DNA of 64,000 bases from the NCBI GenBank assembly GCA_016223145.1, contig JACRPN010000006.1, positions 120,211 through 184,210 of the forward strand. Reading direction: 5' to 3'. Below are positions 21,948 through 49,305 of this stretch, piece by piece (the stretch's first letter is position 1; the number at the start of each line of letters is the position of its first letter). The notes below the pieces were generated by a model that was given only the letters and a program-made list of their open reading frames with translations, had not been told where the DNA came from and did not search any database. A program made the translations under genes and the position numbers. This DNA is from Armatimonadota bacterium (lineage in GTDB: Bacteria > Armatimonadota > Fimbriimonadia > Fimbriimonadales > Fimbriimonadaceae).

Positions 21948-22130
21948 CCGGTTCTCCGGTTCTCCGGTTCTCGTATCCCGTTCCCCCTCACCCCCGTTCG
22001 CTTCGCTCACGGTCCCTCTCCCCCGAAGGGAGAGGTGGTTCACCGACTTAACGTCCAACCGCCTCTCAGTTCATCGACTCATCGACTCACCGACTCACCG
22101 ACTCACCGGTTCTCCGGTTCTCCGGTTCTC
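21948..22130. repeat. composite intergenic repeat: [CCGGTTCT]x3, ~62-bp core containing CCCCCTCACCCCCGTTCGCTTCGCTC, [TCAYCGAC]x5, [CCGGTTCT]x3
   Basis: Direct reading of tandem octamers; the core is homologous to elements at 32645-32716, 34131-34200 and 49192-49305. Confidence 0.7.
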
Positions 22131-22133
22131 CCC

Positions 22134-24917
22134 CTATCCCCCTTCCTTCCCCTTCTGGACGGCAGGAACACCGCTCGTTACCCATTTCTCGGGCTTGGCG
22201 CCCTTTAGGTACACGTCGAAGAAGTGTCGAACCCGGTGCGCGTAGTCAAGCTGGTTTGGCCGCTTGGCCAGACCGTGGTTCTCACCGGGGTAGACCAGCA
22301 TGATGATCTGCTTGCCCATGCGCCGTAGGGTGTTGTAGAACTGCTGGCCCTGATGCCAGTCCACCGCTCCGTCGCTGTCGCCAAAGGCGATCATCATCGG
22401 GGTGTTCAGGTTCTTTGCGTTCCACATCGGCGAGTTGTCTGTATAGGCCTTGATGTCCTCATACCAGGGCACCTCCATGCGGCCCTGGCTGGACTCAAAG
22501 ATCACCTGGTCGGTGATGCCCGCGTTCCAGTAGAAGCTGTTGTACATCGTGATCAGCTCGGTCAGAGGCGCGCCAGCCACCGCAGCGGCGAACACGTTGC
22601 TCTGAGTGGGCACAAAGGCGGTTTGATAGCCGCCCCAAGAGTGGCCCACCAAACCAACCTTCGCCGGATCGACGCCAACCTTCTTGCTCAGCACCGCCTG
22701 GACCGCAGGCTCCAGACACTGCACCGCAGACACGCCAGGCTGACGGTCGCGATAGGCGATGTCCGGCATGAAGACGAAGTACCCTTGTTGAATCCAGTGC
22801 TGCATGTTGTAGCTGCCCCAAGGGCTGGGCATCGCATAGTTGTGGAATCCATCGGAGAGCTGCTCGTAGATGTAGGTGATCATCGGGTAGCTCTTTCCCG
22901 CCTCGTGGCCCGCGGGAAAGTAGAGAATCCCCTGAAGCTCCTTGCCCCATTTGCTCTTGAAGTCCACCAGCTCTGCCTTGCCCCAAAGAAACTCAGCCTG
23001 TTGCGGGTTGGTCCGTGCCAACGGTTTGATCGCCGAGAATTGCTCGTTCGTGAGCTGCCATGAGGGCGACTTTTCGAACGACTGCATCGTGAAGATCATG
23101 CGGTCGACGTCCTTCGCGCGCCGCAATTGCCCGAGGCTGCTGTCGTCGAGCACCAGCATCTTGCCTTCCTTTGCTCCAGGATCGAACCGCAGATAGCCCG
23201 ACTTCTTGGTCTTCTCGTCAAACGCCCGTAAATAGAGGGGGTCCGTGATGCGCAAACCCTCATCACTGAAACCCGGGTTCACAACCTGAAACTCTACGTG
23301 GTCGTCCTTGCCGTCCGTGAGTTGGGTGGCCTTTCCTGCAGCAGGGTCGAACAGCCATTTGTCGTACTTGTCGCCGACAATGAGCCCTGCATCGTCGTTG
23401 AGCCAAACCGGAAACGAAGCCGCGGGCTTTTCCTTGATGGTGTGATCGTCGTCCGTGTCCCAGAAGTCGCGCTTGATGCCCTGGGTTAGATTCCGCGCCT
23501 TGTCTGCGGCGACGTCGTAAACCCACCAGGCTTTCTGCGCGTAATAGGCGAGGAACTTGCCCTCGGGAGAAGGAGTTGGCCCGAACTGGCGCTTCTCCAG
23601 GAAACGGGTGCGGTGGCCCGTGAGCGTGTCGACAACATACCAATCGGAATACTCGATTCCTCCCGGGCGCGTGGGGTCCTCATACGGTTCCGTGTTTTCC
23701 CAGAGCGCTGTCTGGAAGTTCCCGATCAGACGCACCGACTTGACCTCCGGCGATCCGATCTGGGTGAACGTGTTCGTCTCGGGCCGCCAAAGGCAGAGGT
23801 AGGTCTCTCGCTTGGTCTGCTCCAGCACTCTCTGCTGGTAGGGCTGAAGGTCGTAGTCCTTGTAGTGCCAGACGTCCACATTGGGCTTTTCCTCCGGCTT
23901 GGCCTTGTCCTCTTTCTTGTCCTCCCATTCCTTGATGCCGAACGCCACGATGTCCCCCTTCTCGTTTTGCTGAAGGGCGGCGAACTCGGCGATGCGGAAT
24001 CCTTTGGGGAATCTGGAATCGGCAGCGGGGTCGAACGACGCCACGGTGATCGCAGGCTTGTCGAACCCTGTGGCCCGATAGATCACGTTGGCGGCGCCCT
24101 CCTTCTTGGGGTCGGTGGTGCCGGCAAGGAACGTCAGAATGGGCGCCTTTTCAGCCCAGGAGATCAGCCCGAGGTTGCCTTTCTGGAACCGAACGTCTCG
24201 GAGCCTTCCCAAGGCGAAGTCATAAACCTGCACCCCCTTCTGGTCCCCGCCGCTGTCGATGCCAACCGCCATCAGGCCCCCATCCTTGTGGATGTTGAAC
24301 GACACTACATTGCCGATCGTCAGAGCCGACCCCGCCTTCAGATCGAAAATGGATAGGTCGCTGCCACCCGTTTGCCGAGTGGCGGGACGGTAACGCAGGG
24401 CCACCAGGTAGCCGCCACCTTTCGTGAACTCCCAAGACTGAACGCCTTCGAGGATCCTCTCCGCTCCCGTCGCAAGTTCCCGGAGCGCAAGCTTGTTTTC
24501 GACCGGCTTCTTTTGTTCGCGCAGGGCCTCCGCATCCTTCTTGGCGACCTGGATGGAATACGCCACCCATTTCGAGTCGTCGCTGAAGCGGGGGCCAGTT
24601 CCCAGCGGCGTCAGTGCCTGCTGCGGCGCATCGCAGTTCTTGACCACCAAATACCCATCCATGTCCACCTTGTTCACGGTGTAGGCAAACCAGTGCCCGT
24701 CAGGCGAGATTGCCGCCGCCCCAAGAGACTCCCATTGCGCGTAGTCCTCAACCTTGAGCGCGCGCTTTGGACCCTGGGTCGCCGGGGCGCCTTGGGGTGG
24801 CTTGGTCTCTTGGCCCTGGCTGAGAATGTAGGAGTCACTCCAAGCGGGAGCGAGCGCCGCCCCCAGCAGGGAAGCGAGGAGCAAGGGAGTGAGAGTTCGA
24901 AAGATGGCTAGCTTCAT
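22134..24917 (-). CDS. S9 family serine peptidase with N-terminal TolB-like beta-propeller domain (acylaminoacyl-peptidase-like), secreted
   Basis: Signal peptide MKLAIFRTLTPLLLASLLGAALAPAWS; catalytic GHSWGGYQ (GxSxG), downstream Asp and His (GENHG); 927 aa from ATG 24917. Confidence 0.8.
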   Translation of the reverse strand: MKLAIFRTLTPLLLASLLGAALAPAWSDSYILSQGQETKPPQGAPATQGPKRALKVEDYAQWESLGAAAISPDGHWFAYTVNKVDMDGYLVVKNCDAPQQALTPLGTGPRFSDDSKWVAYSIQVAKKDAEALREQKKPVENKLALRELATGAERILEGVQSWEFTKGGGYLVALRYRPATRQTGGSDLSIFDLKAGSALTIGNVVSFNIHKDGGLMAVGIDSGGDQKGVQVYDFALGRLRDVRFQKGNLGLISWAEKAPILTFLAGTTDPKKEGAANVIYRATGFDKPAITVASFDPAADSRFPKGFRIAEFAALQQNEKGDIVAFGIKEWEDKKEDKAKPEEKPNVDVWHYKDYDLQPYQQRVLEQTKRETYLCLWRPETNTFTQIGSPEVKSVRLIGNFQTALWENTEPYEDPTRPGGIEYSDWYVVDTLTGHRTRFLEKRQFGPTPSPEGKFLAYYAQKAWWVYDVAADKARNLTQGIKRDFWDTDDDHTIKEKPAASFPVWLNDDAGLIVGDKYDKWLFDPAAGKATQLTDGKDDHVEFQVVNPGFSDEGLRITDPLYLRAFDEKTKKSGYLRFDPGAKEGKMLVLDDSSLGQLRRAKDVDRMIFTMQSFEKSPSWQLTNEQFSAIKPLARTNPQQAEFLWGKAELVDFKSKWGKELQGILYFPAGHEAGKSYPMITYIYEQLSDGFHNYAMPSPWGSYNMQHWIQQGYFVFMPDIAYRDRQPGVSAVQCLEPAVQAVLSKKVGVDPAKVGLVGHSWGGYQTAFVPTQSNVFAAAVAGAPLTELITMYNSFYWNAGITDQVIFESSQGRMEVPWYEDIKAYTDNSPMWNAKNLNTPMMIAFGDSDGAVDWHQGQQFYNTLRRMGKQIIMLVYPGENHGLAKRPNQLDYAHRVRHFFDVYLKGAKPEKWVTSGVPAVQKGKEGG

Positions 24918-25042
24918 GTCGGGCACAAGACCTCTGATTGCATGGACGGGAAAGCACGGCTCGGCGAACCTCGAAAATGGAGGCAAAAACAGACGGCCCC
25001 ATCGGAGACCGATGGGGCCGTCGTGGTGAATCAATAGGGAGG

Positions 25043-29234: not shown

Positions 29235-29286
29235 GGGGCCAAACTGGACCTATAGGTCCTATATGTCCTATACGACTCATCCCCCC

Positions 29287-31519: not shown

Positions 31520-32541
31520 ATGGACTTCGACCAGTTCCGCAAGGTGATGCAGTCTCTCAATGAGCAGGCACAGCGCGCCGCTGCGGGCAACCAGCCTTCC
31601 TCCAGTGGCGTTCCGCCACCCCAGTTTGACCTCACGGGTTCATCGCAAAGCTACAACAGCTACCGACGCACAGCCGGCTCCTCGGCAGGCAACACCATGA
31701 TCGTCAACTATCTTTCGTTTCTGGTCTTTGTGGTCCTCATGGGGATCGGGTTCGTGTTTTTCGGCGCGAGCCAGATCTTCACGCAAGACACTCCCCCCAT
31801 TGGTGGAATGGTGGCTTGGTTCATCGGTAGCTGGGTGATCGCCAGCGCGATCAAGCTCGCCGCACAATGGGAGCGCGTGCTGGTGTTTCGTTTGGGGCGA
31901 TATGTTCGCACTACCGGCCCCGGCGTCTATATGGTCATCCCCCTGTTCGAGCAGGTGCGCGCCATCGACACCCGCGTCGTGACCGTGGACATCCCTCGGC
32001 AAGAGGCCATCACCAAGGACAATGTGCCCGTGATGATCGACGCTGTCGTGTTTCTGCGCGTGGTACGGCCTGACCAAGCCGTAATCAACGTGCAGGACTA
32101 CATGTTCGCGATCGTCCAGTACGGACGGTCGGCTCTGCGGGATGTGATTGGCGGGCGCACGCTGGATGAGGTGTTAACCGATCGCGAGGGCATCGGCAAG
32201 CAGATTGGGGAGATGCTGAGCGCCGAAACCGAGCATTGGGGCATGGAGGTGGACGGCATCCGCATGCAGGATATCGTGCTGCCGGAAGACCTGAAGAAGG
32301 TCATGAGCCGCCAAGCGGGGGCCGAGCGCGAAAAGCGCGCGAATATCACCAAATCGGAAGGCGACCGCATCGCAGCAGAGAACCTCGCCCAAGCCCCGGG
32401 GCGATGCAGCTTAGAACGCTTCAGACCATCGACGGTTTGGGCCCAACGGCTTCGAACACCGTGGTTCTGGCGGTACCCGTAGAGATCATGGAGGCGGTGG
32501 ACGCGGTGGTCAAGGCCAGGAAGGGAAGGGCTGAGGAGTAG
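31520..32541 (+). pseudogene. SPFH/band-7 (stomatin-like) protein interrupted by a 1-nt frameshift in a G4 run near 32398-32401
   Basis: TM N-terminus then a stomatin core (ERVLVFRLGRY...ITKDNV...RDV...EREKRANI...AAENLAQAP); the conserved C-terminus AMQLRTLQTIDGLGPTASNTVVLAVPVEIM continues in a different frame (ORF 32236..32541); the two frames join at CCGGGGCG, where one more G would restore the reading frame. Confidence 0.55.
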
Positions 32542-32716
32542 GGACGTAGGGATCTAGGGACCAAGGGACAGACGGACCAAGGGACAGACGGACAGAGGGA
32601 CAGACGGACAGAGGGACAGACGGTCAGAAGGACAAAGGGAACACCTCGCCCCTGGGGGAGAGGTCGGTGCCTGCCCCCATTTCCATCGGGGAGCGAAGCG
32701 AACCGGGTGAGGGGGA
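32542..32716. repeat. composite intergenic repeat: GGGACNNA/GGACAGAC octamer tandem array (about 12 units) plus ~72-bp conserved core, minus orientation
   Basis: TAGGGACGTAGGGATCTAGGGACCAAGGGACAGACGGACCAAGGGACAGACGG..., then the core CGCCCCTGGGGGAGAGGTCGGTGCCTGCCCCCATTTCCATCGGGGAGCGAAGCGAACCGGGTGAGGGGG, about 90% identical to 34131-34200. Confidence 0.75.
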
Positions 32717-34004: not shown

Positions 34005-34020
34005 TGAGGCGAAAGAGTAC

Positions 34021-34305
34021 CCCTAGCGAGGGGAGATGAAGGGATGAACAGATGATGGGACAAAGGGACATAGGGACGAAGGGACAAAGGGACAGGGGGC
34101 AAGGGGGGATAAGGTGCAGAAGGGGGCCACTTCGCCCCTGGGGGGAGAGGTCGGTGCCTGCCCCGGTTCCATCGGGGAACGCAGTGAACCGGGTGAGGGA
34201 GCTTCGCAGTGCGGCAACATGGCGCCGCTCTGGGTTGGGATGAGGGGGTGAGGGGGTAAAGGGACAATGGGTCATCCGCCCTTCATCCCTTCATCCCTTC
34301 ATCCC
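34021..34305. repeat. composite intergenic repeat: GATGAAGGG x2, GGGACAnA octamer array, ~70-bp conserved core, then CCCTTCATC x3 (inverted relative to the left end)
   Basis: Core at 34131-34200 (TTCGCCCCTGGGGGGAGAGGTCGGTGCCTGCCCCGGTTCCATCGGGGAACGCAGTGAACCGGGTGAGGG) matches 32645-32716; terminal GATGAAGGG / CCCTTCATC form an inverted repeat. Confidence 0.75.
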
Positions 34306-34313
34306 ATCACTCC

Positions 34314-36989
34314 CTACTCGGACCCTTGGTCCGAGGCGTTCTCCACGTGGATTGTGGTCGTGTAGGTCTTGTCGCCTACTTTCAGCGTGACCTTGTAGTC
34401 ACCCGGGCCGAACCGCCTTCGCTGCCCGCCGCCAGGTCCACCGCCAAAGCCGCCACCTGGAGTCCAGCGCTGAACGTGCATGCCCGCCGCGCGATATCCC
34501 GTGAGCTGCTGACCGACAGTGTTCCCGTCGACGTCCGTCACCGTGATCGTCACGTCGCCGGTTTGGTCTGCTTTGAAGTAGTAGCAGATGTCTGTGCCGG
34601 GCTGCGTGTTTCGCGCCGCCCAGATGCGATCGCCATCCCAGTTGTCCTGCTGGCCGCTGCGCGGGTTCATGATGTACACGTTCTGGGGCCGTGCCAAGAA
34701 CACGTCCTTGTCGGTGTTGGCTTTGATGAGCTCCTCAAGGGCTGAGATGTTCAGCGTCCAGATGCTGCGACCGTGCGTGGCGATGACGGCGTCGAGCTCG
34801 CGGGGATGGATGCGGATGTCGTGCACTGGAACGGTCGGGAACTCCTTGTACTTGGTCCAATTTTCGCCCCGATCGAGCGAGACATAGATCCCGTATTCGG
34901 TCCCAACCAGGAGCAGGTCCGGATTCTGAGTGCCTTCACGAACCACGTGGCACGGCTCATCCGTCCGCATCCCGTTCACGATCTTCTTCCAGGTCTTCCC
35001 AAAGTCCTCCGTCACGAAGACGTAGGTGCTGATGTCGTCGATCCGGTGGTTGTCGAGGGTCACATAGCATCGGCCGGCCGCGTATTTGGAGGCTTGTACC
35101 CGGCTGACGTAGGAATTGCGAGGAACCTCTGCAGGCAGGTTCTCGGCGACCGACGACCAGGTCGCGCCAAAGTCCTGTGTCACCCAAATCTTCCCGTCGT
35201 CGGTACCACCCCAGATCACTCCGGCCTTGGCGCCTGATTCGCTGATGGTGATGACCGTGCAATAGTTCTCCGCGCCCGTTCTATCCCAGGTCACGCTCGG
35301 GGGCCCGGGCTTCTTGGTCGTGTCGTTGGTAGTCAAGTCCGGGCTGATCGCGGTCATGCCGGCGCCGCGATCTAGGCTCCTGAAGATCTTGTTGCCGCCG
35401 AGGTAGACGATCCTCGGGTTGTGTGGCGACAGCTCAATGGGAGTGTTCCAGTTGAACCTGTACGGCGGTTCCCCTTCGGGCCTGGCTGGCCTAAGGTTGC
35501 GCCGCTCGCCGGTTCTGAGATTCACCATGCCGGCAGCACCACCCTGGCTTTCAGAGTAAACAACACCCCAGTCGTCGGGGTCGTTCTGCGTGTAGAAGCC
35601 ATCGCCTCCACCCACGCCGTACCAGTCCCAAAAGGCCACGCTTCCGCGCGCGGTCTGCGTGGGGCCGCCCCAACTGCCGTTGTCCTGAAGCCCGCCATAG
35701 ACGTAATAGGGCTTCCTCATATCGAACGAGCACGCATAGAACTGGCCGATCGCCATGTAGTTTAGGTGCTCCCAGGTGGCGCCGCCGTCGCGCGTCTGCC
35801 CCACGCCGCCGTCCTCGCCGATCAGGATGTGGTTGCTGTCGTTCGGGTTGATCCACATGGCGTGATGGTCCACGTGGACGGAAGTGGGGAAGTTCCGCAT
35901 CGTTTTGCCCTTGTCGTCGCTGACAAAGATCTGGACATCGGGTGTATAGATGCGATTCTCGTTGTTTGGGTCATACCTTGGGATCGTGAAATAGAAGTAG
36001 CGGTAGCTACGCGAACTCATCTTGGTCCACGACTCGCCTCGATCCTCGCTGTAAAAGACGCCGCCCGTTGGGGTGGGGGCAAGCGTCGGGTCAGCGTTCG
36101 GAGTCGACGCCTCGATCTGCATGATCATCTTCCGGGGGTCGTTCCGATGGATGTCGATGCCGATGCGGCCATAGGTTCCTTCGGGCATACCCTTGGAGAT
36201 CTTGCGCCAGGTCTTGCCTGCGTCGGACGATTTGTAGAGCGCGCTGCCCGGCCCGCCGGAAATGTAGTTCCACGGGAGGCGAATGCGCTGGTAAGCCGCT
36301 GCGAAAAGGACCCTGTTGTTGGAAGGGTCCATCACCATATCGACCACGCCCGTCTTCTCGTCGATCTTTAGGACGTGCTGCCAAGTCTTGCCCCCGTCGG
36401 TGGTTTTGAAGACGCCGCGCTCCTCGTTGGTGCCCCAGAGCTTTCCAAGCGCCGCCACATAGACTGTGTCGTTATCCTTGGGGTCAACGATCACCTGAGA
36501 GATGTGGCGCGTGGCCTTAAGACCCATGTCCTGCCAGGTTTTGCCTCCATCAGTGGACTTGTAGGCTCCATCGCCCCAGGACACCGAGTTCCGGCTGTTC
36601 TGCTCGCCAGTGCCGATCCAAACCAGGTTCGGGTCTTTCTGGCTCACGTCCACCGCACCGAGCGAAATCGAGGTGCCTCGATCCCACACCGCTTGCATGG
36701 TCATGCCGCCATTGGTGGTCTTCCATAGACCGCCCGCTGCCGTGGCCACATAGAAGATCCGCGGCTCTTTTTCAAAGACCGCGATGTCGGCGATGCGCCC
36801 ACCCATGCGCGTTGGACCCAGGCTTCGAGCCTTTAGCTCGCCCAGGACGTTGTCGAGGTTTTGGCCGAGAGCGGCCGTGGCGGCTAGCGCCGCAAGTACA
36901 AAAGACAGGGTTCCCTTAGTCAACCAAATGCTCCTATAGAGTTTGCTCGCGACGGCCTTTCGCCGCGTGTAATGGGGCCAATTCGCCAC
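34314..36989 (-). CDS. BNR/Asp-box repeat beta-propeller protein (GH74-like / sortilin-Vps10-like glycoside hydrolase family), secreted or membrane-anchored
   Basis: At least 9 Asp-box motifs S/T-x-D-x-G-x-T-W (STDGGKTWQ, TTDGGKTWQ, SSDAGKTWR, SEDRGESWT, TRDGGATWE, TQDFGATWS, TEDFGKTWK, SLDRGENWT); N-terminal signal/anchor; 891 aa. Confidence 0.7.
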   Translation of the reverse strand: MANWPHYTRRKAVASKLYRSIWLTKGTLSFVLAALAATAALGQNLDNVLGELKARSLGPTRMGGRIADIAVFEKEPRIFYVATAAGGLWKTTNGGMTMQAVWDRGTSISLGAVDVSQKDPNLVWIGTGEQNSRNSVSWGDGAYKSTDGGKTWQDMGLKATRHISQVIVDPKDNDTVYVAALGKLWGTNEERGVFKTTDGGKTWQHVLKIDEKTGVVDMVMDPSNNRVLFAAAYQRIRLPWNYISGGPGSALYKSSDAGKTWRKISKGMPEGTYGRIGIDIHRNDPRKMIMQIEASTPNADPTLAPTPTGGVFYSEDRGESWTKMSSRSYRYFYFTIPRYDPNNENRIYTPDVQIFVSDDKGKTMRNFPTSVHVDHHAMWINPNDSNHILIGEDGGVGQTRDGGATWEHLNYMAIGQFYACSFDMRKPYYVYGGLQDNGSWGGPTQTARGSVAFWDWYGVGGGDGFYTQNDPDDWGVVYSESQGGAAGMVNLRTGERRNLRPARPEGEPPYRFNWNTPIELSPHNPRIVYLGGNKIFRSLDRGAGMTAISPDLTTNDTTKKPGPPSVTWDRTGAENYCTVITISESGAKAGVIWGGTDDGKIWVTQDFGATWSSVAENLPAEVPRNSYVSRVQASKYAAGRCYVTLDNHRIDDISTYVFVTEDFGKTWKKIVNGMRTDEPCHVVREGTQNPDLLLVGTEYGIYVSLDRGENWTKYKEFPTVPVHDIRIHPRELDAVIATHGRSIWTLNISALEELIKANTDKDVFLARPQNVYIMNPRSGQQDNWDGDRIWAARNTQPGTDICYYFKADQTGDVTITVTDVDGNTVGQQLTGYRAAGMHVQRWTPGGGFGGGPGGGQRRRFGPGDYKVTLKVGDKTYTTTIHVENASDQGSE

Positions 36990-38899: not shown

Positions 38900-38933
38900 C
38901 CCCGACCGATCAAAGAGAGACCACCAGGAGGAA

Positions 38934-40568
38934 ATGAACGTGAAACGCTTGCGAGCTGCCGCCATGAGCCTCGTTCTCGCGGCTGCCTTCACCAGCGCAC
39001 AGGATGCGCAGGATAAGAAAGAGGGTCAGGACGCGGAAGCGACAAAAACCCCGAAGTACTTCGCCACGCTTGGTCTTTACGACTGGGGGTTGAGCGGGAA
39101 TCCGCACAAGCTGCGGCAGTATGCCACGCCCGCCACGGGTTTGGTGCTGAAGGACTTCTACACCCAATTCGGTGTGCCGAGGGGCCAAGCTTGGCTTCAC
39201 GCGGCGGGGCCTGGCCAAGAGGACTACGCCTACGAAGGAAGGATGATCTTTAGCAACGGGAAGCTGTCGCTCGACGCTTATCGGATGAGGAACAAGTTCT
39301 TCGACAACACGCCGACGTTCATCCCGCACAGCCAACGGGACGTGGAAGAAGTCAACGGCAGGCTCGCCGTCACGGACAATATCGCGGTGAGCGGAACCTA
39401 CCGCCGGGAGGAGCGCTCGCAGTCCTTTGAGGCGCCGCGCGACCCGCGCAACGATCGCAACTACCTTTGGAATGCCAACATTGACGCCAACCTGAAGGGC
39501 GGCTCGGCCAGCGTCGGTGTGACGGAGCGCCGCTATTACGACCGGCTCAACGTCTACCCAGACTCCAAAACCAAACAGGTGCGGTTCTCCTTCGACCATA
39601 ACATCGGCCCAAAGCTGAACGTTGACGGCACGATCGCCCAGACCAAGATCGAGCAGGGCACGGCGCCCGAGGCGCAGATCGACAATTGGGGCTTGGGGGG
39701 CCAATTCACCCTCAGCGATGACACCGAGATTGGCTTCCGAACGACGCGAGAGAAGTCCGATATTCCGCAAGCCAACCGGGCCTGGGTGAGGGAGCGGTTC
39801 AGCACGACTGCGAACGTGTATCACAGCATTGGCGAGTGGCAGTTGCAGGCCGGCTATACGCGCCGTGAGCATGAGCGCGTTCGAGGTGACCTCTCTTTTG
39901 TCGATCTATCGAAGTGGGACATCTATGAGGGCAGGCTCACCGGCCACGTCAACGATTGGCTCAAGCTGAACTTGAAGGTCAAGCAGCAATCGCTCCGAAA
40001 GGGTGCGATCATGCTGACCGAGGACACGCGCGCGCTCTATTTCGACGACCGGACGACGATTCAGGCCAAGCTGGACGGAAGCAGGGGCCGCACCACCGGA
40101 TACGGCGTGTACACGCAGACCTACCTCGAAAACGAGCCGCGGGACGTGAAGATTCGGAACCACGCCTACACGTTTGGCGGCACCTATCAGCTCACCGACA
40201 CCATGGACGTGTTCGGGGAATACATGAACGAGAGATCGAACGTGAAGAGCGAAGTAGTCGATCCGTTCGAGCTCAAGCTGTTCTTCCCGCAGAGCACGAC
40301 GTTCTCTTGCGGCCTGAACTGGGCCACCAGCCAGAACACGTTCCTCAGCATTGCCTTTACCGAATTTGCGACAGACAATGACAACCCTTTGAACCTGCAG
40401 GACGGCAACGTCCATGGCAGGACACTCAGCACTACACTACGGCACCGTGCGTCCTCGGGCAACGAGTTCTCCATCACGGTGGCGCCCTGGCGATACAACG
40501 ACAAGATGTTCAGCCAATTGGGCTTCCGGACGACCTTGATCCAACTGAACGCAAGCATCCGCTTCTAG
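38934..40568 (+). CDS. outer-membrane beta-barrel protein (MtrB/PioB/OmbB-like porin partner of the decaheme cytochrome)
   Basis: Signal peptide MNVKRLRAAAMSLVLAAAFTSAQD; 544 aa rich in alternating Y/G/T/N/R beta-strand patterns; C-terminal residue Phe (ASIRF), typical of beta-barrel OMPs; 35 nt after the decaheme gene. Confidence 0.6.
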   Translation: MNVKRLRAAAMSLVLAAAFTSAQDAQDKKEGQDAEATKTPKYFATLGLYDWGLSGNPHKLRQYATPATGLVLKDFYTQFGVPRGQAWLHAAGPGQEDYAYEGRMIFSNGKLSLDAYRMRNKFFDNTPTFIPHSQRDVEEVNGRLAVTDNIAVSGTYRREERSQSFEAPRDPRNDRNYLWNANIDANLKGGSASVGVTERRYYDRLNVYPDSKTKQVRFSFDHNIGPKLNVDGTIAQTKIEQGTAPEAQIDNWGLGGQFTLSDDTEIGFRTTREKSDIPQANRAWVRERFSTTANVYHSIGEWQLQAGYTRREHERVRGDLSFVDLSKWDIYEGRLTGHVNDWLKLNLKVKQQSLRKGAIMLTEDTRALYFDDRTTIQAKLDGSRGRTTGYGVYTQTYLENEPRDVKIRNHAYTFGGTYQLTDTMDVFGEYMNERSNVKSEVVDPFELKLFFPQSTTFSCGLNWATSQNTFLSIAFTEFATDNDNPLNLQDGNVHGRTLSTTLRHRASSGNEFSITVAPWRYNDKMFSQLGFRTTLIQLNASIRF

Positions 40569-40623
40569 TGAGCGTAAACGCATGCGACACGAAACCAAAA
40601 CGGAGCGAACAAAGAGGAAAACC

Positions 40624-42180
40624 ATGAAAGCGAGATGGCTATTAGCGACGGCGGCGTTGGCGCCTTTTGCCGTTGCCGTCCTGGCGCTGCAGAGTTGTGG
40701 CGGCGAAGGTGGGCCCATTGGCGGCGGAGGAGGCGGAGGGACCGGTGACACTGCGCTCGTGGCGCAGTTCAAGGGCCTCTTCACCGATTCTCAAAAGGCA
40801 GGGGCGACTTATGTCGGCTCTGAATCCTGTGGAGCCACCGGTTGCCACGGGACCCGTGACAATGAGGACATCTATTCGACTTGGCACGAAACCAAGCACT
40901 TTGGCAAGAACGTAGGTTGCGAGAGCTGCCACGGTCCTGGCAGCGCGCACGTTGCCAGCCAGAGCGACGCAGATATTTTGACCTTTCCGAAGATCACGAA
41001 TGCTGTGGTTTGCGGCCAATGCCACGGGCCGATCTATAACGACTATCTTCGGTCTGGCCACCGCCAGATCGTTGAGTCGCCTGTGCATGAAGCCGCAACG
41101 AACCCAAATACCTATGGGAAGAGCTCGCGATGCATTTCCTGTCACAGCGGTCTATTCAGGACTGAAATCAACGAAAAGGGCGTCGACGTCGCGACGATGG
41201 ACAACGCCAGGATCACTGAAATTGCGGAAGAGACCCTCAACGACGTGCCCAACATCGCCAACTGCGCGACGTGCCACAACCCGCATGCCCAGACCGGCAA
41301 CGTGAGCAAGGGTGGAAAGGAGGTCCAGTTACGGCATCTCGTCCACAACGAGAGCGTGACGGACATCAACGGCGCTCAGACCACCGTGCCGACGCCGGCA
41401 ACCTTCACGAACTTCAACCACATCTGCGGCCAATGCCACAACGGCCGAGCCGCGGATGGCCGTGACCCCAAGCTGACGAGCAGCACGAGCCGCCCCAACA
41501 TGCACGACTCCAACCAGTTCAACATGCTGATGGGCGTCGGTGGCGCTGAAGGGGCAGGTCCCCCGATTCGCAACATGGCGCATGCACAAGCCCCTGGCCA
41601 ATGCTCCGCCTGCCACATGCCGGGTTCCAGGCACACCTTCACGGTGAGCTACGATAAGGGTTGTGCGCCTTGCCATAGCGCCGAAGACGCGGCAGTTCGA
41701 AAGAGCGCCATCGCCAATGAGATCACTGGCGGACTGTATTCCCTGCGGCAGAGAATGGCGGACTGGTCGGCATCGTTCTACAACGCCAGCAAGCCTGGTT
41801 ACGAGAACGTGCCTGCAGCCCTGCGGCCCTATCTGTGGGAGTACTCCACCATGATCAATGCTGCGGCCACGGAACTTGGTATCACGACGACCAACGTTCC
41901 AACCAACCACCAGTCGGTGTTGCCGATCCAGATCAAGCGAGCGCGACACAACTACTACTTCATCGTCCGAGACTCCTCCATCTGCCCGCACAACCCGCCG
42001 TATGCACGGCACCTGTTGAACGTAGGCAACGACAACATGGATGAACTAACGGGCGGCAGCGCCTACGGAGCCAGCACTTCCAAGAGCAAGTTGCCGAGCT
42101 TCGCGGCGATGCAGCGGGTCCTCCAAGCCGACAAGGCACGAGCAGCCCGTGCGGAAATGAACAACCCGCACGACGACTAA
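40624..42180 (+). CDS. multiheme c-type cytochrome, probable outer-membrane lipoprotein (OmcB/MtrC-role candidate)
   Basis: Signal peptide with Cys (LALQSC), then Gly-rich flexible linker GGEGGPIGGGGGGGTGD; 7 CxxCH (CESCH, CGQCH x2, CISCH, CATCH, CSACH, CAPCH) plus CGATGCH (CX4CH); 14 nt after the barrel gene. Confidence 0.7.
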   Translation: MKARWLLATAALAPFAVAVLALQSCGGEGGPIGGGGGGGTGDTALVAQFKGLFTDSQKAGATYVGSESCGATGCHGTRDNEDIYSTWHETKHFGKNVGCESCHGPGSAHVASQSDADILTFPKITNAVVCGQCHGPIYNDYLRSGHRQIVESPVHEAATNPNTYGKSSRCISCHSGLFRTEINEKGVDVATMDNARITEIAEETLNDVPNIANCATCHNPHAQTGNVSKGGKEVQLRHLVHNESVTDINGAQTTVPTPATFTNFNHICGQCHNGRAADGRDPKLTSSTSRPNMHDSNQFNMLMGVGGAEGAGPPIRNMAHAQAPGQCSACHMPGSRHTFTVSYDKGCAPCHSAEDAAVRKSAIANEITGGLYSLRQRMADWSASFYNASKPGYENVPAALRPYLWEYSTMINAAATELGITTTNVPTNHQSVLPIQIKRARHNYYFIVRDSSICPHNPPYARHLLNVGNDNMDELTGGSAYGASTSKSKLPSFAAMQRVLQADKARAARAEMNNPHDD

Positions 42181-42186
42181 AGCCAG

Positions 42187-42214
42187 AAGCCCGCTCCCTC
42201 AACAGGGGGCGGGC
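42187..42214 (+). terminator. rho-independent terminator candidate after the + strand cytochrome operon
   Basis: AGCCCGCTCCCT-CAAC-AGGGGGCGGGCT hairpin (11/12 bp stem) 7 nt after stop 42180. Confidence 0.5.
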
Positions 42215-42766
42215 TCTCTGAGCCGCCTCTTTGAACATCTGCTCCCGGACCTGAACCGGTATCCTGACTTCCACGAGAGGTCAGGGTGCCGGTTCGCCTT
42301 TTGTGTGATGGTTCAGTAACGCTGGCGAATGGGGTTGGTTTAGGGACTCAACGGCGCGCATCCAGCCCAAAGCCGACGAGGTCGCGGAGTTCTCGGGATG
42401 GGGGTCGGATTTGCCCCTCCAAGGAAAGCAAGAGAACGACAACGAGTGAATGTCTGGCGCAGCTCTAATCGTCTCCATGAGGGAGTGGACGTTGTTGCTT
42501 CGAGGTGGAAGCAGACCTTGCCGGTTGAGACGGCAAAGCAGGAATCTGATTTCTCAACGTCGTCTCTGGCTCGAAGGAGCTGGCCAGCACTTGAAAGCCG
42601 AGGACTGGGCCGCATCTCAAGTGTCGGTCAACGAGGTCCAACGGCCCAACGTGATGGAACGTCGAGCGGGGTCCTGGAACCTGGCGCAAGGGAATGCGCA
42701 AGTCCAGAAGGATTGCCTCGTTGACCTTTGAGATGGCTTCTATCGCTGCAATCGCTGACAAAGGTC

Positions 42767-44026
42767 TCAGTCGTGGGCAGGTTGGCCTTTCTTGCTAAAG
42801 AGGATTTCCACAGCGACTTTGACCATGAGGGTGAAGATCAGGAACCCGATGCCGAACACGCCGATCGCAACACGCACTTCCGAGGCGCTGGGCACGTAGT
42901 GGTAAATCTGCCCCAATGGATCGGGCGTGTAGCCAGGGATGATCAAAGCGATGCCCTTCTCGATATAGACCGACAAGTAGATGAGCACACACCCTACGTT
43001 CATCGTGATCGGGTTCATGCGAGTCTTGGGCACAATGAAGAGAACAAAGGACGAGATCGCAAAGAGTAGAGACATCCAAGCATACGGAGCGATCGGGGAG
43101 CTTTCTCCATGGAGTCCGGTGAAAAGGTACTGGTAGTGTACCAAGTGATGCGTGTTCGAGTAGTACTCCTTGAACACTTCAGCACCAAAGAGGAAAAGGT
43201 TCAAAGCCATGGCGTATGCCATATACTCGGCTACCTTATGGATCGCCTCGTCCTTGATTTCAAAAGACGATATTTTTCTCAATATCTGGAAAAGAATCAG
43301 GAGAAGGGCCGGGCCAGAGCAAAATGCGGAAGCAATGAACCTCGGAGCCAGAATGGCGCTGTTCCAGTAGGGGCGGCTCGCCATGCCGTTGTAAAGGAAC
43401 GCGGTCACCGTATGAATGCCAATGGCCATCGGGATCGACAAGATGACAAGGGGAACCACGATCTTTGGGTTGTATTTCTTGCCATGATAGGCGCAATAGA
43501 CCAAATATGTGGCTACGCAGAAATTGATCAATAGGTAAGCGTTCAGAACCGTGGCATCCCAAGCCATGATCGACTGCGGCAAGTGCATGTGCCCAATGAA
43601 TGGTATGAGATGCCAGAAGCGGTCTGGCCGACCCATGTCAACGCTAACGAAGAGTAGGCACATAATGATCGAGGCGACGGCTAGCAGCTCGCCGAAAATG
43701 ACAACCTCTTTGATTGGTTTCCAGTTGTAGACATAGGCGGGAATAACCAGCAAGACCGCAGCAGCAGCAACGCCGACCAAGAACGTAAAGTTACCAATAT
43801 AGAAACCCCACGAGACGGAGTCGCGCATATTGGTGGTGATGAGTCCGTACTGGAATTGATGGGCATAGGCGAAAACCGCCTGCAAGATGCAGACGCATAG
43901 CAGAGCAAGCCAGAGGTAATAGGTTCTGCTTCCACCCAAAAATGCCATCCGTGCGGTTCCTGAAACGAAGTTCCAGGGAGTTCTTAGGACTTTCATTGAA
44001 TCATGGTTCCTTTTTGAAGCCACCAC
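42767..44026 (-). CDS. NrfD/PsrC-family integral membrane quinol-interacting subunit
   Basis: 419 aa, about 10 TM helices with the conserved NrfD-like pattern (WDATVLNAYLLINF, AILAPRFIASAF); downstream of the NrfC-like Fe-S gene on the same strand. Confidence 0.8.
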   Translation of the reverse strand: MVASKRNHDSMKVLRTPWNFVSGTARMAFLGGSRTYYLWLALLCVCILQAVFAYAHQFQYGLITTNMRDSVSWGFYIGNFTFLVGVAAAAVLLVIPAYVYNWKPIKEVVIFGELLAVASIIMCLLFVSVDMGRPDRFWHLIPFIGHMHLPQSIMAWDATVLNAYLLINFCVATYLVYCAYHGKKYNPKIVVPLVILSIPMAIGIHTVTAFLYNGMASRPYWNSAILAPRFIASAFCSGPALLLILFQILRKISSFEIKDEAIHKVAEYMAYAMALNLFLFGAEVFKEYYSNTHHLVHYQYLFTGLHGESSPIAPYAWMSLLFAISSFVLFIVPKTRMNPITMNVGCVLIYLSVYIEKGIALIIPGYTPDPLGQIYHYVPSASEVRVAIGVFGIGFLIFTLMVKVAVEILFSKKGQPAHD

Positions 44027-44133
44027 TTCGTCTCACGAGAGGCGGTGCACGAGCTGCAAGTGCTTATGCTGAGCCTCCAAAGTGGTGCTCAGCCCGATCG
44101 CAGACGTGTAAAGACGAATTACCTGGAGCATCC

Positions 44134-45093
44134 TTACAAACCGTAGTAGTAGAAGAATTTGGGTTGGGTGTTCAACTCCTCTTTCAGAATCAGAACACGC
44201 TTGTTCTCAATGATGTAGCGGACCTCGCTCTCCGGGTCAAGAAGATTGCCAAACTTGCGGGCACCCACCGGACAGGCTTCCACACACCTTGGATAGAGTC
44301 CCTTTCGAACTCTTCCAATGCACCAAGTGCACTTTTCAACCACGCCACGGGGTCGCGGCCTGTTGCCGAGGTAATCGGTCTCCGTATTTATCTGATCCTT
44401 CGGAATCGTTGGAGTTGTCCAGTTGAAACGTCGCGCACCGTAAGGGCAAGCTGTAATGCAGCATCGGCACCCAATGCACCAGTTGTAGTCGATGACGACG
44501 ATGCCGTCGGGCTCCTTCCACGTTGCACCCACCGGACAGACTTTCACGCAAGGAGGATTCTCACAGTGCTGACAAGCGACCGGCATATAGAACTTGCCTG
44601 GGGCGGGGACTTCCTCGTGGTCGTAAAACGCATCTGCTTTGGCAAGATCAACACCTCCCTCTTTGTCCATTTCCAAGACCGTGATCCAATGCGTCTGTGG
44701 GTCACGAGATTGGTTGTTTTCGTCTACGCATGCGTAGACACACTTCCGGCAACCTATGCACCTGGAAAGGTCGAGCGCATATCCGTACAGCACACCCTCC
44801 AAAGGCGGTGTGGAGGTAACGTTAATGTGCTTGCCGTAATCTTCCCAGTACTGCTTTTCCATCCGGGCGAGTGTCGTCTTCAGTTCTTCCGGCGAAAGGT
44901 CCTTAAAGTACTTCTGAACGAAATCGTCACGTATTCGCTTATCCGCCAGACAGCCCGTCAGGGAAGCCGTTGCAGCCAGCGAAAAAAAGGTCTGGACGAT
45001 TATCTCGCGGCGACTTGGCCCGTTACGATCCATCTTCGGGGGCGGTTTTGAAGCGACTTGAAGTTTGCTCATCGTGTGACCTTCCAGAATCAC
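44134..45093 (-). CDS. Tat-exported 4x[4Fe-4S] ferredoxin-type iron-sulfur subunit (NrfC/PsrB/HybA-like)
   Basis: Twin-arginine leader SRREIIVQTFFSLAATAS; four Cys clusters (CIGCRKCVYAC, CQHCENPPCVKVCP, CIGCRCCITACP, CTWCIGR...CVEACP); start overlaps the stop of the upstream tetraheme gene. Confidence 0.85.
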   Translation of the reverse strand: MILEGHTMSKLQVASKPPPKMDRNGPSRREIIVQTFFSLAATASLTGCLADKRIRDDFVQKYFKDLSPEELKTTLARMEKQYWEDYGKHINVTSTPPLEGVLYGYALDLSRCIGCRKCVYACVDENNQSRDPQTHWITVLEMDKEGGVDLAKADAFYDHEEVPAPGKFYMPVACQHCENPPCVKVCPVGATWKEPDGIVVIDYNWCIGCRCCITACPYGARRFNWTTPTIPKDQINTETDYLGNRPRPRGVVEKCTWCIGRVRKGLYPRCVEACPVGARKFGNLLDPESEVRYIIENKRVLILKEELNTQPKFFYYYGL

Positions 45094-45614
45094 CGGATCT
45101 CCTCTTGTGGCAGTGGAGGGGGCATAGGCTTGAGTGGCTTGAAGCGAGGGGAGTGGGGGTTGTGACAGCTTACGCAGAGCAAGTACTGCTTCTGTCCCGA
45201 CCAGGATCCCGTCCGCTTTCCGTGTTCACCGGCTTTCCAAGCGCGAAGTGTCGGGCCATGGCATTGGCCACAGAGACGATAGGACTCAGTGAACGGAACA
45301 GGGCGGCCGTCAGCAAGGTGAAGCTGGTCGCGATTTTGGGCATCGTGGCAATCGAGACACCACCTGTTCTTTTCATCATGGTGCAGCTCGATGTCAGGAT
45401 GGGCATCCACGGCATGTGGGGTTCGGTTGACGATCGCATCCTTCATATGGCAGTTTGAACACGGAAAGATGCCTTCAGAAAAAGGTGGAGGCGACACAGG
45501 AAGCAGATTTGCAGTTCCGCCATTGGGTCTGGTTGAAGCATTGTTGAAGTGGAGGGATCTCCCGGTTGTCTGGTCGCAACCGCTCAAGAGAATGGAGCCG
45601 ATCCCTACCGCCAT
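45090..45614 (-). CDS. tetraheme c-type cytochrome, probable lipoprotein
   Basis: Lipobox-like ILLSGC after MAVGIG; CSNCH, CLDCH, CGQCH, CVSCH; start uncertain (45614 ATG; the ORF track extends to 45863 with a non-signal-like N-terminus). Confidence 0.65.
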   Translation of the reverse strand: MAVGIGSILLSGCDQTTGRSLHFNNASTRPNGGTANLLPVSPPPFSEGIFPCSNCHMKDAIVNRTPHAVDAHPDIELHHDEKNRWCLDCHDAQNRDQLHLADGRPVPFTESYRLCGQCHGPTLRAWKAGEHGKRTGSWSGQKQYLLCVSCHNPHSPRFKPLKPMPPPLPQEEIR

Positions 45615-45798
45615 CCAGATAGATGGCTTGCCAAAGGTTGCTTTTAGTCTATTTCGCACGTGCGTGCTCCTCAATTCTGAAAGAGAAGAGCTGAATAGCC
45701 GCTCCCCACCTGATGCTCTACTTTGACGGGCTGGATTCAATGATCCTGATTCTCTGAATCCGTCATAGAGAATCCAGCCGAACCCAATGTTGAGCCTG

Positions 45799-46134
45799 CT
45801 ACTTGCTCTTTTCGTCGCCGGGCAACGTGCCCTTCTTGAGTTCGTCGCCGTTCTTGACACCATCTTTGTCCGAGTCGAGCGCCTCGATCTTTTTAAGGAT
45901 GCCAGCCGTCAGCTCCGAGCCTCCCGAGGCCTTAAGAGCCTTGTCAACATCCCTGCCGTAAGCGTTGACAGGGCCGCCCTTATTTGATGGATGACAAGCG
46001 GTGCACATGGCTTTTGAAAGCGCCGAGCCGGCCGGTGCTTTGTAGGCGCCAATGAAGGTCTTGAGAAACATCGGCTTTGGCATGGCGAAGCAGGCGATCG
46101 AGCCGAGGATGACGAGGATTGTTGTTCTTTTCAT
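45799..46134 (-). CDS. small secreted monoheme cytochrome c
   Basis: Signal peptide MKRTTILVILGSIACFA; single CTACH; 112 aa; ATG 46134 overlaps the Rrf2 stop. Confidence 0.7.
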   Translation of the reverse strand: MKRTTILVILGSIACFAMPKPMFLKTFIGAYKAPAGSALSKAMCTACHPSNKGGPVNAYGRDVDKALKASGGSELTAGILKKIEALDSDKDGVKNGDELKKGTLPGDEKSK

Positions 46135-46616
46135 GGTTGTTCTCGATGAGGATGCGAAAGAGAATTCTTGTTGCCTTGATGACCTGCCTCCTTGATCCCT
46201 TCCGAGCCGGCAAGACCTTCTAGCGTGCGGCTTGCGAGGATATGGCAGACCGAGTCCCTCATCCCACTCCAAAGGTGGTGGAGCTGACAAGGAGATTCGG
46301 CGTTGCAGACTCGGTCGTGGTTCAAGAAACACCAAGGCTTCACAAATGGGCCCTCGTATGCTTCGATGATCTCCAGTAGGGTGATTTCAGAGGCGGACCG
46401 GGCCAAGCTGTATCCACGCACGGCGCCTCGATGAGGCCGGAGCAATCCGGAATTGACCAGTTGGCTGAAGATATTGCGGGCGAATTTACACGGGATCGAG
46501 GCGCCGGTTGCGATCTCTTCGGCTTGGATGGGGCGGCCCGGGGGCTGGCCGGCAATCCACATCATTGCCGACAAAGCGTACTCACATCCCCTCGTCAGTC
46601 GAAGAACCTGTGCCAT
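46131..46616 (-). CDS. Rrf2 family transcriptional regulator with probable Fe-S cluster (IscR/NsrR-like)
   Basis: N-terminal wHTH LRLTRGCEYALSAMMWIA...IPCKFARNIFSQLVNSGLL; three clustered Cys C-x7-C-x5-C (PWCFLNHDRVCNAESPC); first gene of the - strand cytochrome/NrfCD operon. Confidence 0.8.
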   Translation of the reverse strand: MAQVLRLTRGCEYALSAMMWIAGQPPGRPIQAEEIATGASIPCKFARNIFSQLVNSGLLRPHRGAVRGYSLARSASEITLLEIIEAYEGPFVKPWCFLNHDRVCNAESPCQLHHLWSGMRDSVCHILASRTLEGLAGSEGIKEAGHQGNKNSLSHPHREQP

Positions 46617-46620
46617 TGGG

Positions 46621-46633
46621 TTGAGTCACTCAA
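46621..46633. promoter_or_regulatory. perfect 13-bp palindrome TTGAGTcACTCAA immediately upstream of the Rrf2 start; candidate operator
   Basis: 6+1+6 inverted repeat, 5 nt upstream of ATG 46616 on the - strand. Confidence 0.3.
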
Positions 46634-47033: not shown

Positions 47034-47109
47034 AAAGGGGGAGTGGTAGCCCGGACGGGACTTGAACCCGCGACCTCCGCCTTGAAAGGGCGGCATCCTA
47101 ACCACTAGA
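47034..47109 (-). tRNA. tRNA-Glu (anticodon UUC)
   Basis: Reverse complement reads GGCCCGGTCGTCTAGTGGTTAGGATGCCGCCCTTTCAAGGCGGAGGTCGCGGGTTCAAGTCCCGTCCGGGCTACCA: cloverleaf with 7-bp acceptor, anticodon loop CTTTCAA (UUC), T-loop TTCAAGT, encoded CCA; close to E. coli tRNA-Glu (CGUCUAG...CGCCCUUUCACGGCGG). Confidence 0.8.
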
Positions 47110-47167
47110 CGACCGGGCCAGAAGCTCTGGATTGTGGCCTATTCAGGGCCTTCTCGGCAAGCGGGGC

Positions 47168-47638: not shown

Positions 47639-47713
47639 GGGAAGGTGATTGTAGCACGGGAGGCCTTGCAATGCCCAGGCAAAGAGCTGGAGCAGAGCCT
47701 TGGGGCATGGCCG

Positions 47714-48070
47714 TCAGTCCCCGATCCCTCTACGCCTGTCCGTGGCGCCAGACTGCCAAGCCACTAAGAAATAGGCGCCGCCAATGCCCAGAACAGCCCC
47801 AGATATCCGAAGGGTCTCATCGGGCCAGAAAAAGTGGGCGGCCAAGAAGCAGGTCGCTGCAATCAGGACTGCGCGAGCGATAGGCAACGTCAGGGGTTTT
47901 TGTACTTCACGCCTGAAGCGCTCCCTGAACCCCTCGAAGGTGGGATCGGGAACGGGATTGGGATTCTCTCTGCAAAAGTCGCCGTGAGCCAGCCGGAGGT
48001 TCTCCTGTTGGAGTTCCTCGGTCAACCGAACCAGTTTGCCGTCGCGCCAGGTCAATGGCTGATCGTCCAT
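47714..48070 (-). CDS. small membrane protein (hypothetical)
   Basis: About 118 aa, two C-terminal TM segments; no motif. Confidence 0.35.
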   Translation of the reverse strand: MDDQPLTWRDGKLVRLTEELQQENLRLAHGDFCRENPNPVPDPTFEGFRERFRREVQKPLTLPIARAVLIAATCFLAAHFFWPDETLRISGAVLGIGGAYFLVAWQSGATDRRRGIGD

Positions 48071-48116
48071 GGCTTCACCGTTGCATGGGCGGCGGGGCAC
48101 TGATCATGGGCAAGAC

Positions 48117-49169: not shown

Positions 49170-49191
49170 GGGCTTTGAGGGTACCCGGAGG

Positions 49192-49305
49192 CCCCCTCAC
49201 CCGGTTCGGTGCCCTCACCGGCCTCTCCTACGAGGGGCGAGGCAGTTGCCCCCTCACCCGGTTTGTTGCCCATTCCGGCCTCTTCAACGAGGGGCGGGCC
49301 TCACG
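49192..49305 (+). repeat. tandem pair of ~55-bp palindromic repeat units (CCCCCTCACCCGGTT...CCTCT..ACGAGGGGCG)
   Basis: Unit 1 CCCCCTCACCCGGTTCGGTGCCCTCACCGGCCTCTCCTACGAGGGGCG; unit 2 CCCCCTCACCCGGTTTGTTGCCCATTCCGGCCTCTTCAACGAGGGGCGGG; the termini (CCCCTC / GAGGGG) can pair; same core as the 21.9/32.6/34.1 kb elements. Confidence 0.7.

Follow-up and report, generated by a model that had tools for sequence, protein, structure and literature searches.

In this study, we describe five copies of a short interspersed repeat in a 64-kb stretch of a metagenome-assembled genome (MAG) from an Armatimonadota bacterium of the family Fimbriimonadaceae (contig JACRPN010000006.1, positions 120,211 to 184,210). 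This stretch is called the window, and statements on elements and gene domains absent from the host genome apply within these 64 kb. The copies, named A to E, are probably degenerate members of the class of intergenic DNA repeats known as BoxC, PIT (potential intrastrand triplex) or TM-ECO, with a hairpin-type linker in place of the 3-nt second loop, and if they act at all they would act as DNA. This class is already described and very widespread in bacteria, and the finding is largely ordinary. Accounts of it are by Bachellier (1990s), Hoyne and Maher (2000/2002) and Holder et al. 2015 (PMC4666352). In the last of these, the TM-ECO motif reads 5'-CCCTCNCCC N3-6 GGGNGAGGG N3 GGGNGAGGG, is the same as the Escherichia coli BoxC repeat and as Hoyne and Maher's PIT element, and is counted 3610 times in 262 proteobacterial genomes.

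Concerning their architecture, the copies consist of block1 CCTC(T/G)CCC, a short loop, block2 GGGAGAGG, a linker of 17-39 nt and block3 GGGTGAGGGGG. This order is legible on the G-rich strand, the opposite of the one taken as informative in the original prediction, which had been made from the letters of the window. The same architecture exists in other genomes. When 185,579 species genomes were scanned for the 17-mer CCCCCTCACCCGGTTYG, at least 120 loci came up; about half of the 120 matches listed are chance occurrences in coding DNA (Streptomyces and others), which were set aside, and the remaining loci have one clear common architecture. In this canonical layout block1 CCCTC(T/G)CCC, a loop that is usually CTTGC, and block2 GGGAGAGGG are followed by a single T, a linker hairpin such as GGTTCGCC...GGCGAACC and block3 GGGTGAGGGG(G). 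Short-loop copies with a 3-4-nt linker occur at the same loci as hairpin-linker copies. The hosts are Alphaproteobacteria (Bradyrhizobium, Rhodopseudomonas, Hyphomicrobium, Blastochloris, Devosia, Sphingomonadaceae, Hyphomonadaceae, Kiloniellales) and Planctomycetota (Planctomycetaceae, Pirellulales, Gemmatales, Phycisphaeraceae), and a junction sequence of 16-17 nt is identical in both of these phyla and in the Armatimonadota MAG.

Fifteen elements from other genomes (Alphaproteobacteria and Planctomycetota) went into a covariance model, R1, with the two helices as structure. With filters off, R1 finds exactly five copies in the window, those of the original prediction and no others; four of them have E-values between 2e-9 and 3e-6, and the next match, at 14 bits, is half of copy A. 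Altogether R1 detects 116 elements in 56 sources, and more than 100 homologous elements lie outside the window. The same model also recognises the BoxC pair of E. coli K-12 (hrpB-mrcB), with 34.6 and 30.3 bits and the linker counted as a deletion. Moreover, the canonical element matches Azospirillum megaplasmids in BLAST searches, which gave no phage match and are insensitive at 55 nt. The distribution is patchy between related genomes: 73 kb from related Fimbriimonadia contain no element as compared to five in 64 kb here, which agrees with the TM-ECO report in enterobacteria. The next relatives of the E2 protein, whose gene lies between copies B and C, are 60-69% identical (named sources are Fimbriimonas or Fimbriimonadaceae), and they do not share the gene order seen here around E2.

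The window copies are degenerate members of the family. Preservation is best in copy A. Copies B and C share the long linker and align as two blocks of 87% and 93% identity with a 1-nt indel between them; copy C is a decaying sister of B, with blocks 1 and 3 eroded and two mismatches between block1 and block2. Copy E is a degenerate tandem duplicate of D (86% identity over 49 nt, spacing 57 nt) that has kept little beyond block3. Block3 is GGGTGAGGGGG in A, B, D and E and GGGTGAGGGAG in C. The 15-nt core that the original prediction saw as shared, CCCCCTCACCCGGTT, has four matches in the window at no more than two mismatches where 0.29 are expected, and four or more were reached in none of 100 shuffles. 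A 21-mer specific to B and C has no exact match in the metagenome collection, and the B/C subfamily is therefore so far private to this genome. Direct tandems like D/E are also found in Planctomycetota; in one Planctomycetota MAG (JPMR_metabat.7_sub) four to five hairpin-linker elements follow each other with a period of about 63 nt (L030 6428-6667; L060 1509-1815), and their linker stems differ from unit to unit, fully compensated.

The linker is a hairpin in the canonical relatives. In the alignment of 116 elements, which is fitted to R1 and hence biased toward the model, 93.6% of the linker-hairpin cells are paired as compared to 44-58% with the partners slid, and changes on both sides occur in seven of seven pairs, values reached in none of 500 shuffles. 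The same covariation is visible in the raw sequences without any model (GGTTCGCC/GGCGAACC, GGTTTGGC/GCCAAACC, GGCCTGC/GCAGGCC). Since G·T mismatches in the linker helix (10) are as rare as A·C mismatches (9), neither strand carries an RNA wobble signal; in addition there are 49 G·A/A·G mismatches. Of the two strands, the G-rich one folds better. The sequence GCGAAGC, known as a DNA mini-hairpin of unusual stability, occurs in 20 elements and its complement in 5. Folded as DNA, the canonical element forms two hairpins with block3 free (z -5.9), and copy A likewise forms two hairpins and a free tail (z -1.85). The predicted family fold comprises two local hairpins and a free G-rich tail.

The relation of block3 to block2 bears on the triplex reading. 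An antiparallel purine-motif triplex predicts that position j of block3 tracks position 10-j of block2, with block1 compensating. In the R1 alignment G7>A in block2 goes together with G3>A in block3 and C3>T in block1 in five of five cases and never otherwise, and when these cases are read in the direct register all are mismatches. The variant CCCTCCCCCC/GGGGGGAGGG/GGGAGGGGGG (L100) obeys the mirror rule, which is also kept by GGGGGAGAGG/GGAGAGGGG (L084) and by GGGGGAGAGG with GGGTGAGGGGGGGG (L067). An independent sample came from a metagenome scan for CCCTCCCCC-N3-6-GGGGGAGGG in which the third block was left unspecified (at least 120 loci). Among the metagenome matches listed, the mirror block GGG[AT]GGGGG stands at most 16 nt 3' of block2 in 83 of 133 distinct hairpins, the direct repeat in 5 and the canonical block in 13; on the 5' side none of the 133 has any of the three. 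The mirror block pairs with block1 only with two mismatches. Triplex geometry is the simplest account of it. A second subfamily, CCCTCCCCC / GGGGGAGGG / GGG[AT]GGGGG with a second loop of 2-3 nt, is abundant in metagenome contigs (L128-L247; at least 120 loci).

In detail, window copies and BoxC agree in the three blocks, their order and strand and in near-same sequences (CCCTC[T/G]CCC, GGGAGAGGG, GGGTGAGGG). The C-rich block CCCTCNCCC, a loop of 3-6 nt and the complementary G-rich GGGNGAGGG are present in the window copies, with two mismatches in C and a shortened block2 in D and E, as is a second G-rich GGGNGAGGG in mirror symmetry to the first. A G·A-mismatch subtype recurs in both: CCCTCGCCCC/GGGGAGAGGG, included among the E. 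coli copies listed by Holder et al. (PMC4666352), is carried by copies B and D, and block1 of B is of the mismatch type of the E. coli 'A mm' BoxC. Both are intergenic, multicopy and patchy among relatives, and sequence homology is evident from the R1 scores of the E. coli copies. The window copies differ in their second loop, a linker of 17-39 nt where the published pattern has 3 nt, in their host, which is an Armatimonadota and not a proteobacterium, and in being single or tandem instead of inverted pairs; they are partly eroded, and arrays of 8-nt period adjoin three of their loci. The second loop is limited to 3 nt in the published TM-ECO pattern, to 1-6 nt in ITxF and to 0-10 nt in the work of Hoyne and Maher. 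Since a 17-39-nt linker exceeds these loops, the published pattern and an ITxF search would miss elements of the window type.

For the BoxC-type reading, the following course of events is conceivable. When the G-rich strand becomes single-stranded, be it in a transcription bubble or during repair or replication, block1 CCCTCNCCC would pair with block2 GGGAGAGGG, the linker would fold back on itself, in many cases about a core of GCGAAGC that holds tandem G·A pairs, and block3 GGGTGAGGG could return antiparallel along block2, giving G·G:C, A·A:T and T·A:T triads. Elements may multiply locally, as the D/E tandem and the composite units at B and C suggest, and undergo patchy gain and loss from lineage to lineage. 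The results establish family membership, the covariation of the hairpin, the mirror relation of block3 to block2 and the lack of hallmarks of terminators, small RNAs or transposons; we infer that the hairpin-linker form makes a triplex, that it does so in vivo, and how copies spread. No gene-regulatory role is demonstrated for these elements. According to Holder et al. (PMC4666352), the single-stranded short-loop motif of E. coli shows triplex signatures in vitro, and in the literature such structures stall polymerases in vitro and are linked to local rearrangement and instability in E. coli.

Several points weigh against this reading. The triplex formation reported by Holder et al. (PMC4666352) concerns the short-loop E. 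coli form only, not a linker of 17-39 nt; the same account gives no triplex in double-stranded DNA and no protection in the in vivo dimethyl sulfate footprint, and the triplex may for this reason never form in cells. The window copies fold no better than shuffled sequences, as RNA or DNA and on both strands (z -1.85 to +0.69), so that the window by itself gives no grounds for a structural argument. For B, D and E the best fold is predicted to form between block1 and block3, since a G of block1 can wobble-pair with a T of block3. The long imperfect hairpin between the termini that the original prediction had assumed thus survives as an alternative block1-block3 fold predicted in these three copies; it is not the fold of the family, and no copy beats shuffles with it. 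Blocks of C and E are eroded, and the cases of mirror covariation may stem from few evolutionary events. Furthermore, the junction CGAACC-GGGTGAGGGGG is common to three phyla beyond what structure alone explains, and a missing protein partner or mobilisation system is therefore likely. A bolder version, to which we give a small but real chance, holds that the repeat is an active, horizontally spreading single-stranded DNA element with a mobilisation or recognition partner, which here duplicates as a composite of array and motif; as a corollary, whalefall-1 (see below) would be a triplex repeat of DNA rather than a gene for an RNA. Such an element would explain why Alphaproteobacteria, Planctomycetota and Armatimonadota have CGAACC-GGGTGAGGGGG in common.

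All five copies lie in intergenic spacers, as the original prediction had stated; the underlying gene map is crude, and neighbour identities come from Pfam scans. Copy A is flanked by the convergent genes of a 527-aa open reading frame (ORF) and an S9 peptidase, copy B by those of an SPFH/Band 7 protein and the 2-oxoacid dehydrogenase E2 subunit. Both neighbours of copy C, E2 and a BNR/sortilin-like gene, are on the minus strand, and D/E stand between the divergent genes of an Mrp/ParA ATPase and a phosphoesterase/beta-propeller protein, with D on the sense strand 22 nt upstream of the Mrp/ParA ATG. Hence only A and B have convergent neighbours, and the earlier statement that three copies lie between convergent or terminating genes needs correction. 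Orientation with respect to genes is mixed: A and B are sense to one gene, 3' of it, and antisense to the opposite convergent gene, and C is antisense to both adjacent genes. The window arrangement is three single copies and one direct tandem, and inverted doublets are absent from it. Outside Planctomycetota, 44 of about 84 elements (mostly from Alphaproteobacteria) lie in tail-to-tail and 18 in head-to-head inverted pairs. The ORFs 21906-22208 and 33973-34275 run across arrays and repeats, have no Pfam match and look like the artefacts they were taken for. Housekeeping genes are encoded in the window.

Whether the copies belong to a small structured or cis-acting RNA has to be weighed in the light of whalefall-1 (RF01762), rated as certainly an RNA by Weinberg et al. 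2010 (PMC2864571) and described in Rfam as a small RNA known only from whale-fall metagenomes. The G-rich strand would then form two hairpins and a single-stranded GGGUGAGG tail binding a protein or RNA. Relatives from a Planctomycetaceae MAG match the full whalefall-1 model on the same strand and reach 24.9 bits, where the gathering score is 37; they share its CUCUCC/GGAGAG hairpin, the second, variable hairpin and the conserved GGGUGAGG tail, and the block order is the same in the window copies. Pairing is good in both helices and covariation strong in the linker helix; A and B are on the sense strand 3' of genes and D/E on the sense strand in a 5' leader. Nevertheless, we regard an RNA as improbable. 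The stem sequences are unlike, and in the window only copy A is matched, at 12.2 bits, with nothing for B and C at E<=5 or for D and E at E<=10. At gathering thresholds Rfam finds only a tRNA and one unrelated small RNA in the window and 18 canonical-element loci. Copy C is antisense to both neighbours, A and B are antisense to one each, the relatives lie mostly in inverted pairs, strand-specific wobble is lacking, and the tail covaries as the mirror image of block2, for which RNA pairing does not account. In the account of Holder et al. (PMC4666352), PIT elements have neither promoter nor terminator activity in E. coli, and purine-motif triplexes are cited as not forming in RNA. The evidence favours a DNA element widespread in cultured and uncultured lineages, which leaves the structured RNA family, one of the earlier proposals, as the weaker reading. 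The window copies are strict members of neither defined pattern, BoxC/PIT or whalefall-1; because both the whalefall-1 threshold and the 3-nt loop rule fail, we class them as a hairpin-linker variant of BoxC/PIT.

The earlier proposal of REP/MITE-like elements (repetitive extragenic palindromic; miniature inverted-repeat transposable element) holds broadly in that the copies are interspersed, intergenic, structured repeats; the family, BoxC/PIT/triplex-motif with a hairpin as second loop, had not been recognised. REP, BIME and REPIN sequences are mobilised by RAYT (Y1) transposases, whose genes the repeats typically flank, and the replicative unit of REPINs is an inverted doublet. Like these sequences, the copies are short, GC-rich and hairpin-forming, often inverted doublets in the class as a whole, with copy numbers varying between strains. 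A non-autonomous element of REP/REPIN or MITE type, with its transposase encoded elsewhere and the triplex-like symmetry as a recognition feature, is rather unlikely, and it would be compatible with the BoxC-type reading as a route of copy spread. Interspersion, patchiness between related genomes, inverted doublets in relatives and E. coli and the presence on Azospirillum megaplasmids speak for it, and the junction of 16-17 nt identical across three phyla suggests horizontal spread or a conserved partner. Yet REP families are normally species-specific, not shared by several phyla, and have no counterpart of the third, mirror-symmetric block; none of the five copies has a GTAG-type REP head, terminal inverted repeats or a target-site duplication; none of about 57 window ORFs scanned has a transposase, RAYT or integrase domain; and no mobilising enzyme is known for BoxC. 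The copies begin with CCTC and end with GAGGGGG, with inverted 8-mer arrays farther out at locus C only, which speaks against a MITE. A G-quadruplex, made of the four runs of at least three G in block2 and block3 (GGGAGAGGG...GGGTGAGGGG) with block1 as the competing strand, satisfies the formal pattern but is very improbable: it does not require the mirror order, which prevails over the direct one by 83 to 5 among the metagenome matches listed; in the GGGAGAAGG/GGATGAGGG variant two G-tracts are interrupted and block1 compensates, for which a quadruplex has no need; and Holder et al. (PMC4666352) describe triplex signatures for the single-stranded E. coli motif. Intrinsic terminators or hairpins stabilising mRNA 3' ends, suggested by GC-rich hairpins between convergent genes at A and B, are scarcely credible, and we reject the terminator and promoter reading. 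No element has a U-tract after its hairpins, and a terminator scan of the window stays at background (12 sites, 9.4 expected) with only two weak sites touching elements, at the edge of copy B (32652-32638 and 32653-32636, minus strand), and none at D/E; D/E lie between divergent genes and C upstream of a gene, and E. coli PIT elements have no terminator activity in the account cited above. Chance similarity of low-complexity GC-rich spacers would fit the composition of the blocks and the fold energies of single copies, which are not significant, but it is refuted by the enrichment of the 15-mer, the E-values of four copies with a model from other phyla and the more than 100 homologues.

Tandem arrays of 8-nt period, which had escaped the original prediction, adjoin three of the four repeat loci, A, B and C (Table 1); their units include GGGACAGA, GGGACAAA, GAGAACCG and GTGAGTCG according to TRF. 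Locus C is closed by an inverted array, with arms of 25 nt (34035-34059 / 34279-34303) that are 88% complementary. B and C align in register through both array and element, and array and motif may duplicate as a composite unit. The association of arrays and elements may stem from slippage beside a stalling structure, from insertion into existing arrays or from shared residence in permissive spacers. The only other arrays of like period in the window are repeats of 9-mers, a weak one at 29249-29272 and those in coding DNA at 8651-8702. The former, CCTATAGGT in 2.7 copies, lies in a 52-nt spacer between genes of a GAF histidine kinase and an endonuclease/exonuclease/phosphatase-family protein.

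Table 1. Positions of the repeat copies, their blocks and the adjoining tandem arrays in the window. Strands and block sequences of the copies refer to the G-rich strand.
Feature	Coordinates	Strand	Sequence or composition	Match or method
Copy A	21983..22035	(-)		R1 match 21984-22036(-), 41.3 bits, E 1.4e-7
A, block1	22028-22035		CCTCTCCC	
A, loop			TTCGG	
A, block2	22015-22022		GGGAGAGG	
A, linker hairpin	21994-22012		CCGTGAGCGAAGCGAACGG, contains GCGAAGC	
A, block3	21983-21993		GGGTGAGGGGG	
Copy B	32644..32715	(+)		R1 match 32643-32714(+), 40.6 bits
B, block1	32644-32652		CCTCGCCCC	
B, loop			(C)TG(G)	
B, block2	32655-32663		GGGGAGAGG	
B, long linker	32666-32704		ends in GCGAAGCGAACC	
B, block3	32705-32715		GGGTGAGGGGG	
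Copy C	34130..34201	(+)		R1 match 34129-34200(+), 35.2 bits
C, block1	34130-34138		CTTCGCCCC	
C, block2	34142-34150		GGGGAGAGG	
C, linker	34153-34190			
C, block3	34191-34201		GGGTGAGGGAG	
Copy D	49192..49242	(-)		R1 match 49193-49243(-), 49.5 bits, E 2.1e-9
D, block1	49234-49242		CCTCGCCCC	
D, block2, shortened	49222-49228		GGAGAGG	
D, linker	49203-49219		GGTGAGGGCACCGAACC	
D, block3	49192-49202		GGGTGAGGGGG	
Copy E	49249..49298	(-)		R1 match 49250-49293(-), 18.1 bits, E 0.019
E, blocks 1/2, eroded (block2 shortened)			CCCGCCCCTCG / GAAGAGG	
E, block3, intact	49249-49259		GGGTGAGGGGG	
Array beside copy A	21916..21972		8-nt, 16-nt superperiod	TRF
Arrays on other side of copy A	22071..22131		TCACCGAC then CCGGTTCT; orientation same as 21916-21972	TRF
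Array directly 5' of copy B block1 (G-rich strand)	32539..32634	(+)	8/16-nt AGGGACAGACGGACAG	TRF score 114
Array 5' of copy C block1	34038..34094	(+)	8-nt GGGACAAA	TRF
Inverted array 3' of copy C	34279..34315 (array DNA listed 34236-34315)	(-)	CCCTTCAT, reverse complement of ATGAAGGG	TRF

One Planctomycetaceae locus (L056) has the same layout with a heptamer array, and Fimbriimonadia relatives have such arrays without the element. Arrays of 7-9-nt period were seen in spacers at L056 229-329, L006 5712-5938, L107 819-920, L123 9471-9535 and L125 7886-7915. The contigs belong to Planctomycetaceae, Vicinamibacterales, Pyrinomonadaceae and Fimbriimonadia, some of the arrays form inverted pairs and thus long imperfect palindromes, and among these loci a triplex-motif element stands beside the array in L056 only. 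A general link between triplex motif and array was rejected, since in 1.74 Mb a 6-9-nt array lies within 150 nt of no more than about 3 of 282 elements, a rough count, as the regular expression missed the three array loci of the window and L056. The STRR heptamer arrays of cyanobacteria, which are likewise tandem arrays of short period (7-8 nt) restricted to spacers between genes, resemble the flanking arrays only and differ from them in unit sequence and phylum; we know of no described link between STRR arrays and triplex motifs.

For annotation, we suggest labelling these loci as BoxC/PIT-type repeats instead of genes, small RNAs or terminators and dropping the ORFs called across them. That a single model, R1, connects E. 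coli BoxC, the repeats of alphaproteobacteria, planctomycetes and armatimonadetes and the whalefall-1 layout is a modest new point. A further one is that the third block mirrors the second in samples chosen without a triplex rule, which is, as far as we found, comparative evidence for the triplex reading independent of any triplex-based search. Since a hairpin can stand in for the short second loop, part of the class may escape triplex finders whose loop limits are 6-10 nt. The cellular role of BoxC-type elements has been open since the 1990s, and the results given here bear on identity and not on function in cells. They may be of interest to those who work on bacterial repeats and non-B DNA.

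Apart from the repeats, the window has a single Rfam match at gathering threshold, the tRNA gene 47047-47119 (-) with 66.1 bits. A cluster at 37922-46616 encodes multihaem c-type cytochromes (37922-38899, 40582-42180, 45090-45863), a porin-like protein (38934-40568), an NrfD-like membrane subunit (42767-44026), a 4Fe-4S protein (44134-45093) and an Rrf2 regulator (46131-46616), and may represent a porin-cytochrome or NrfCD-type electron conduit. The GC content drops to 0.54 at 42-46 kb. Two tandem paralogues on the minus strand, 10088-10828 and 11001-11777, carry PEP-CTERM anchors and are 70-73% identical at the DNA level over stretches of 145 nt and 67 nt.

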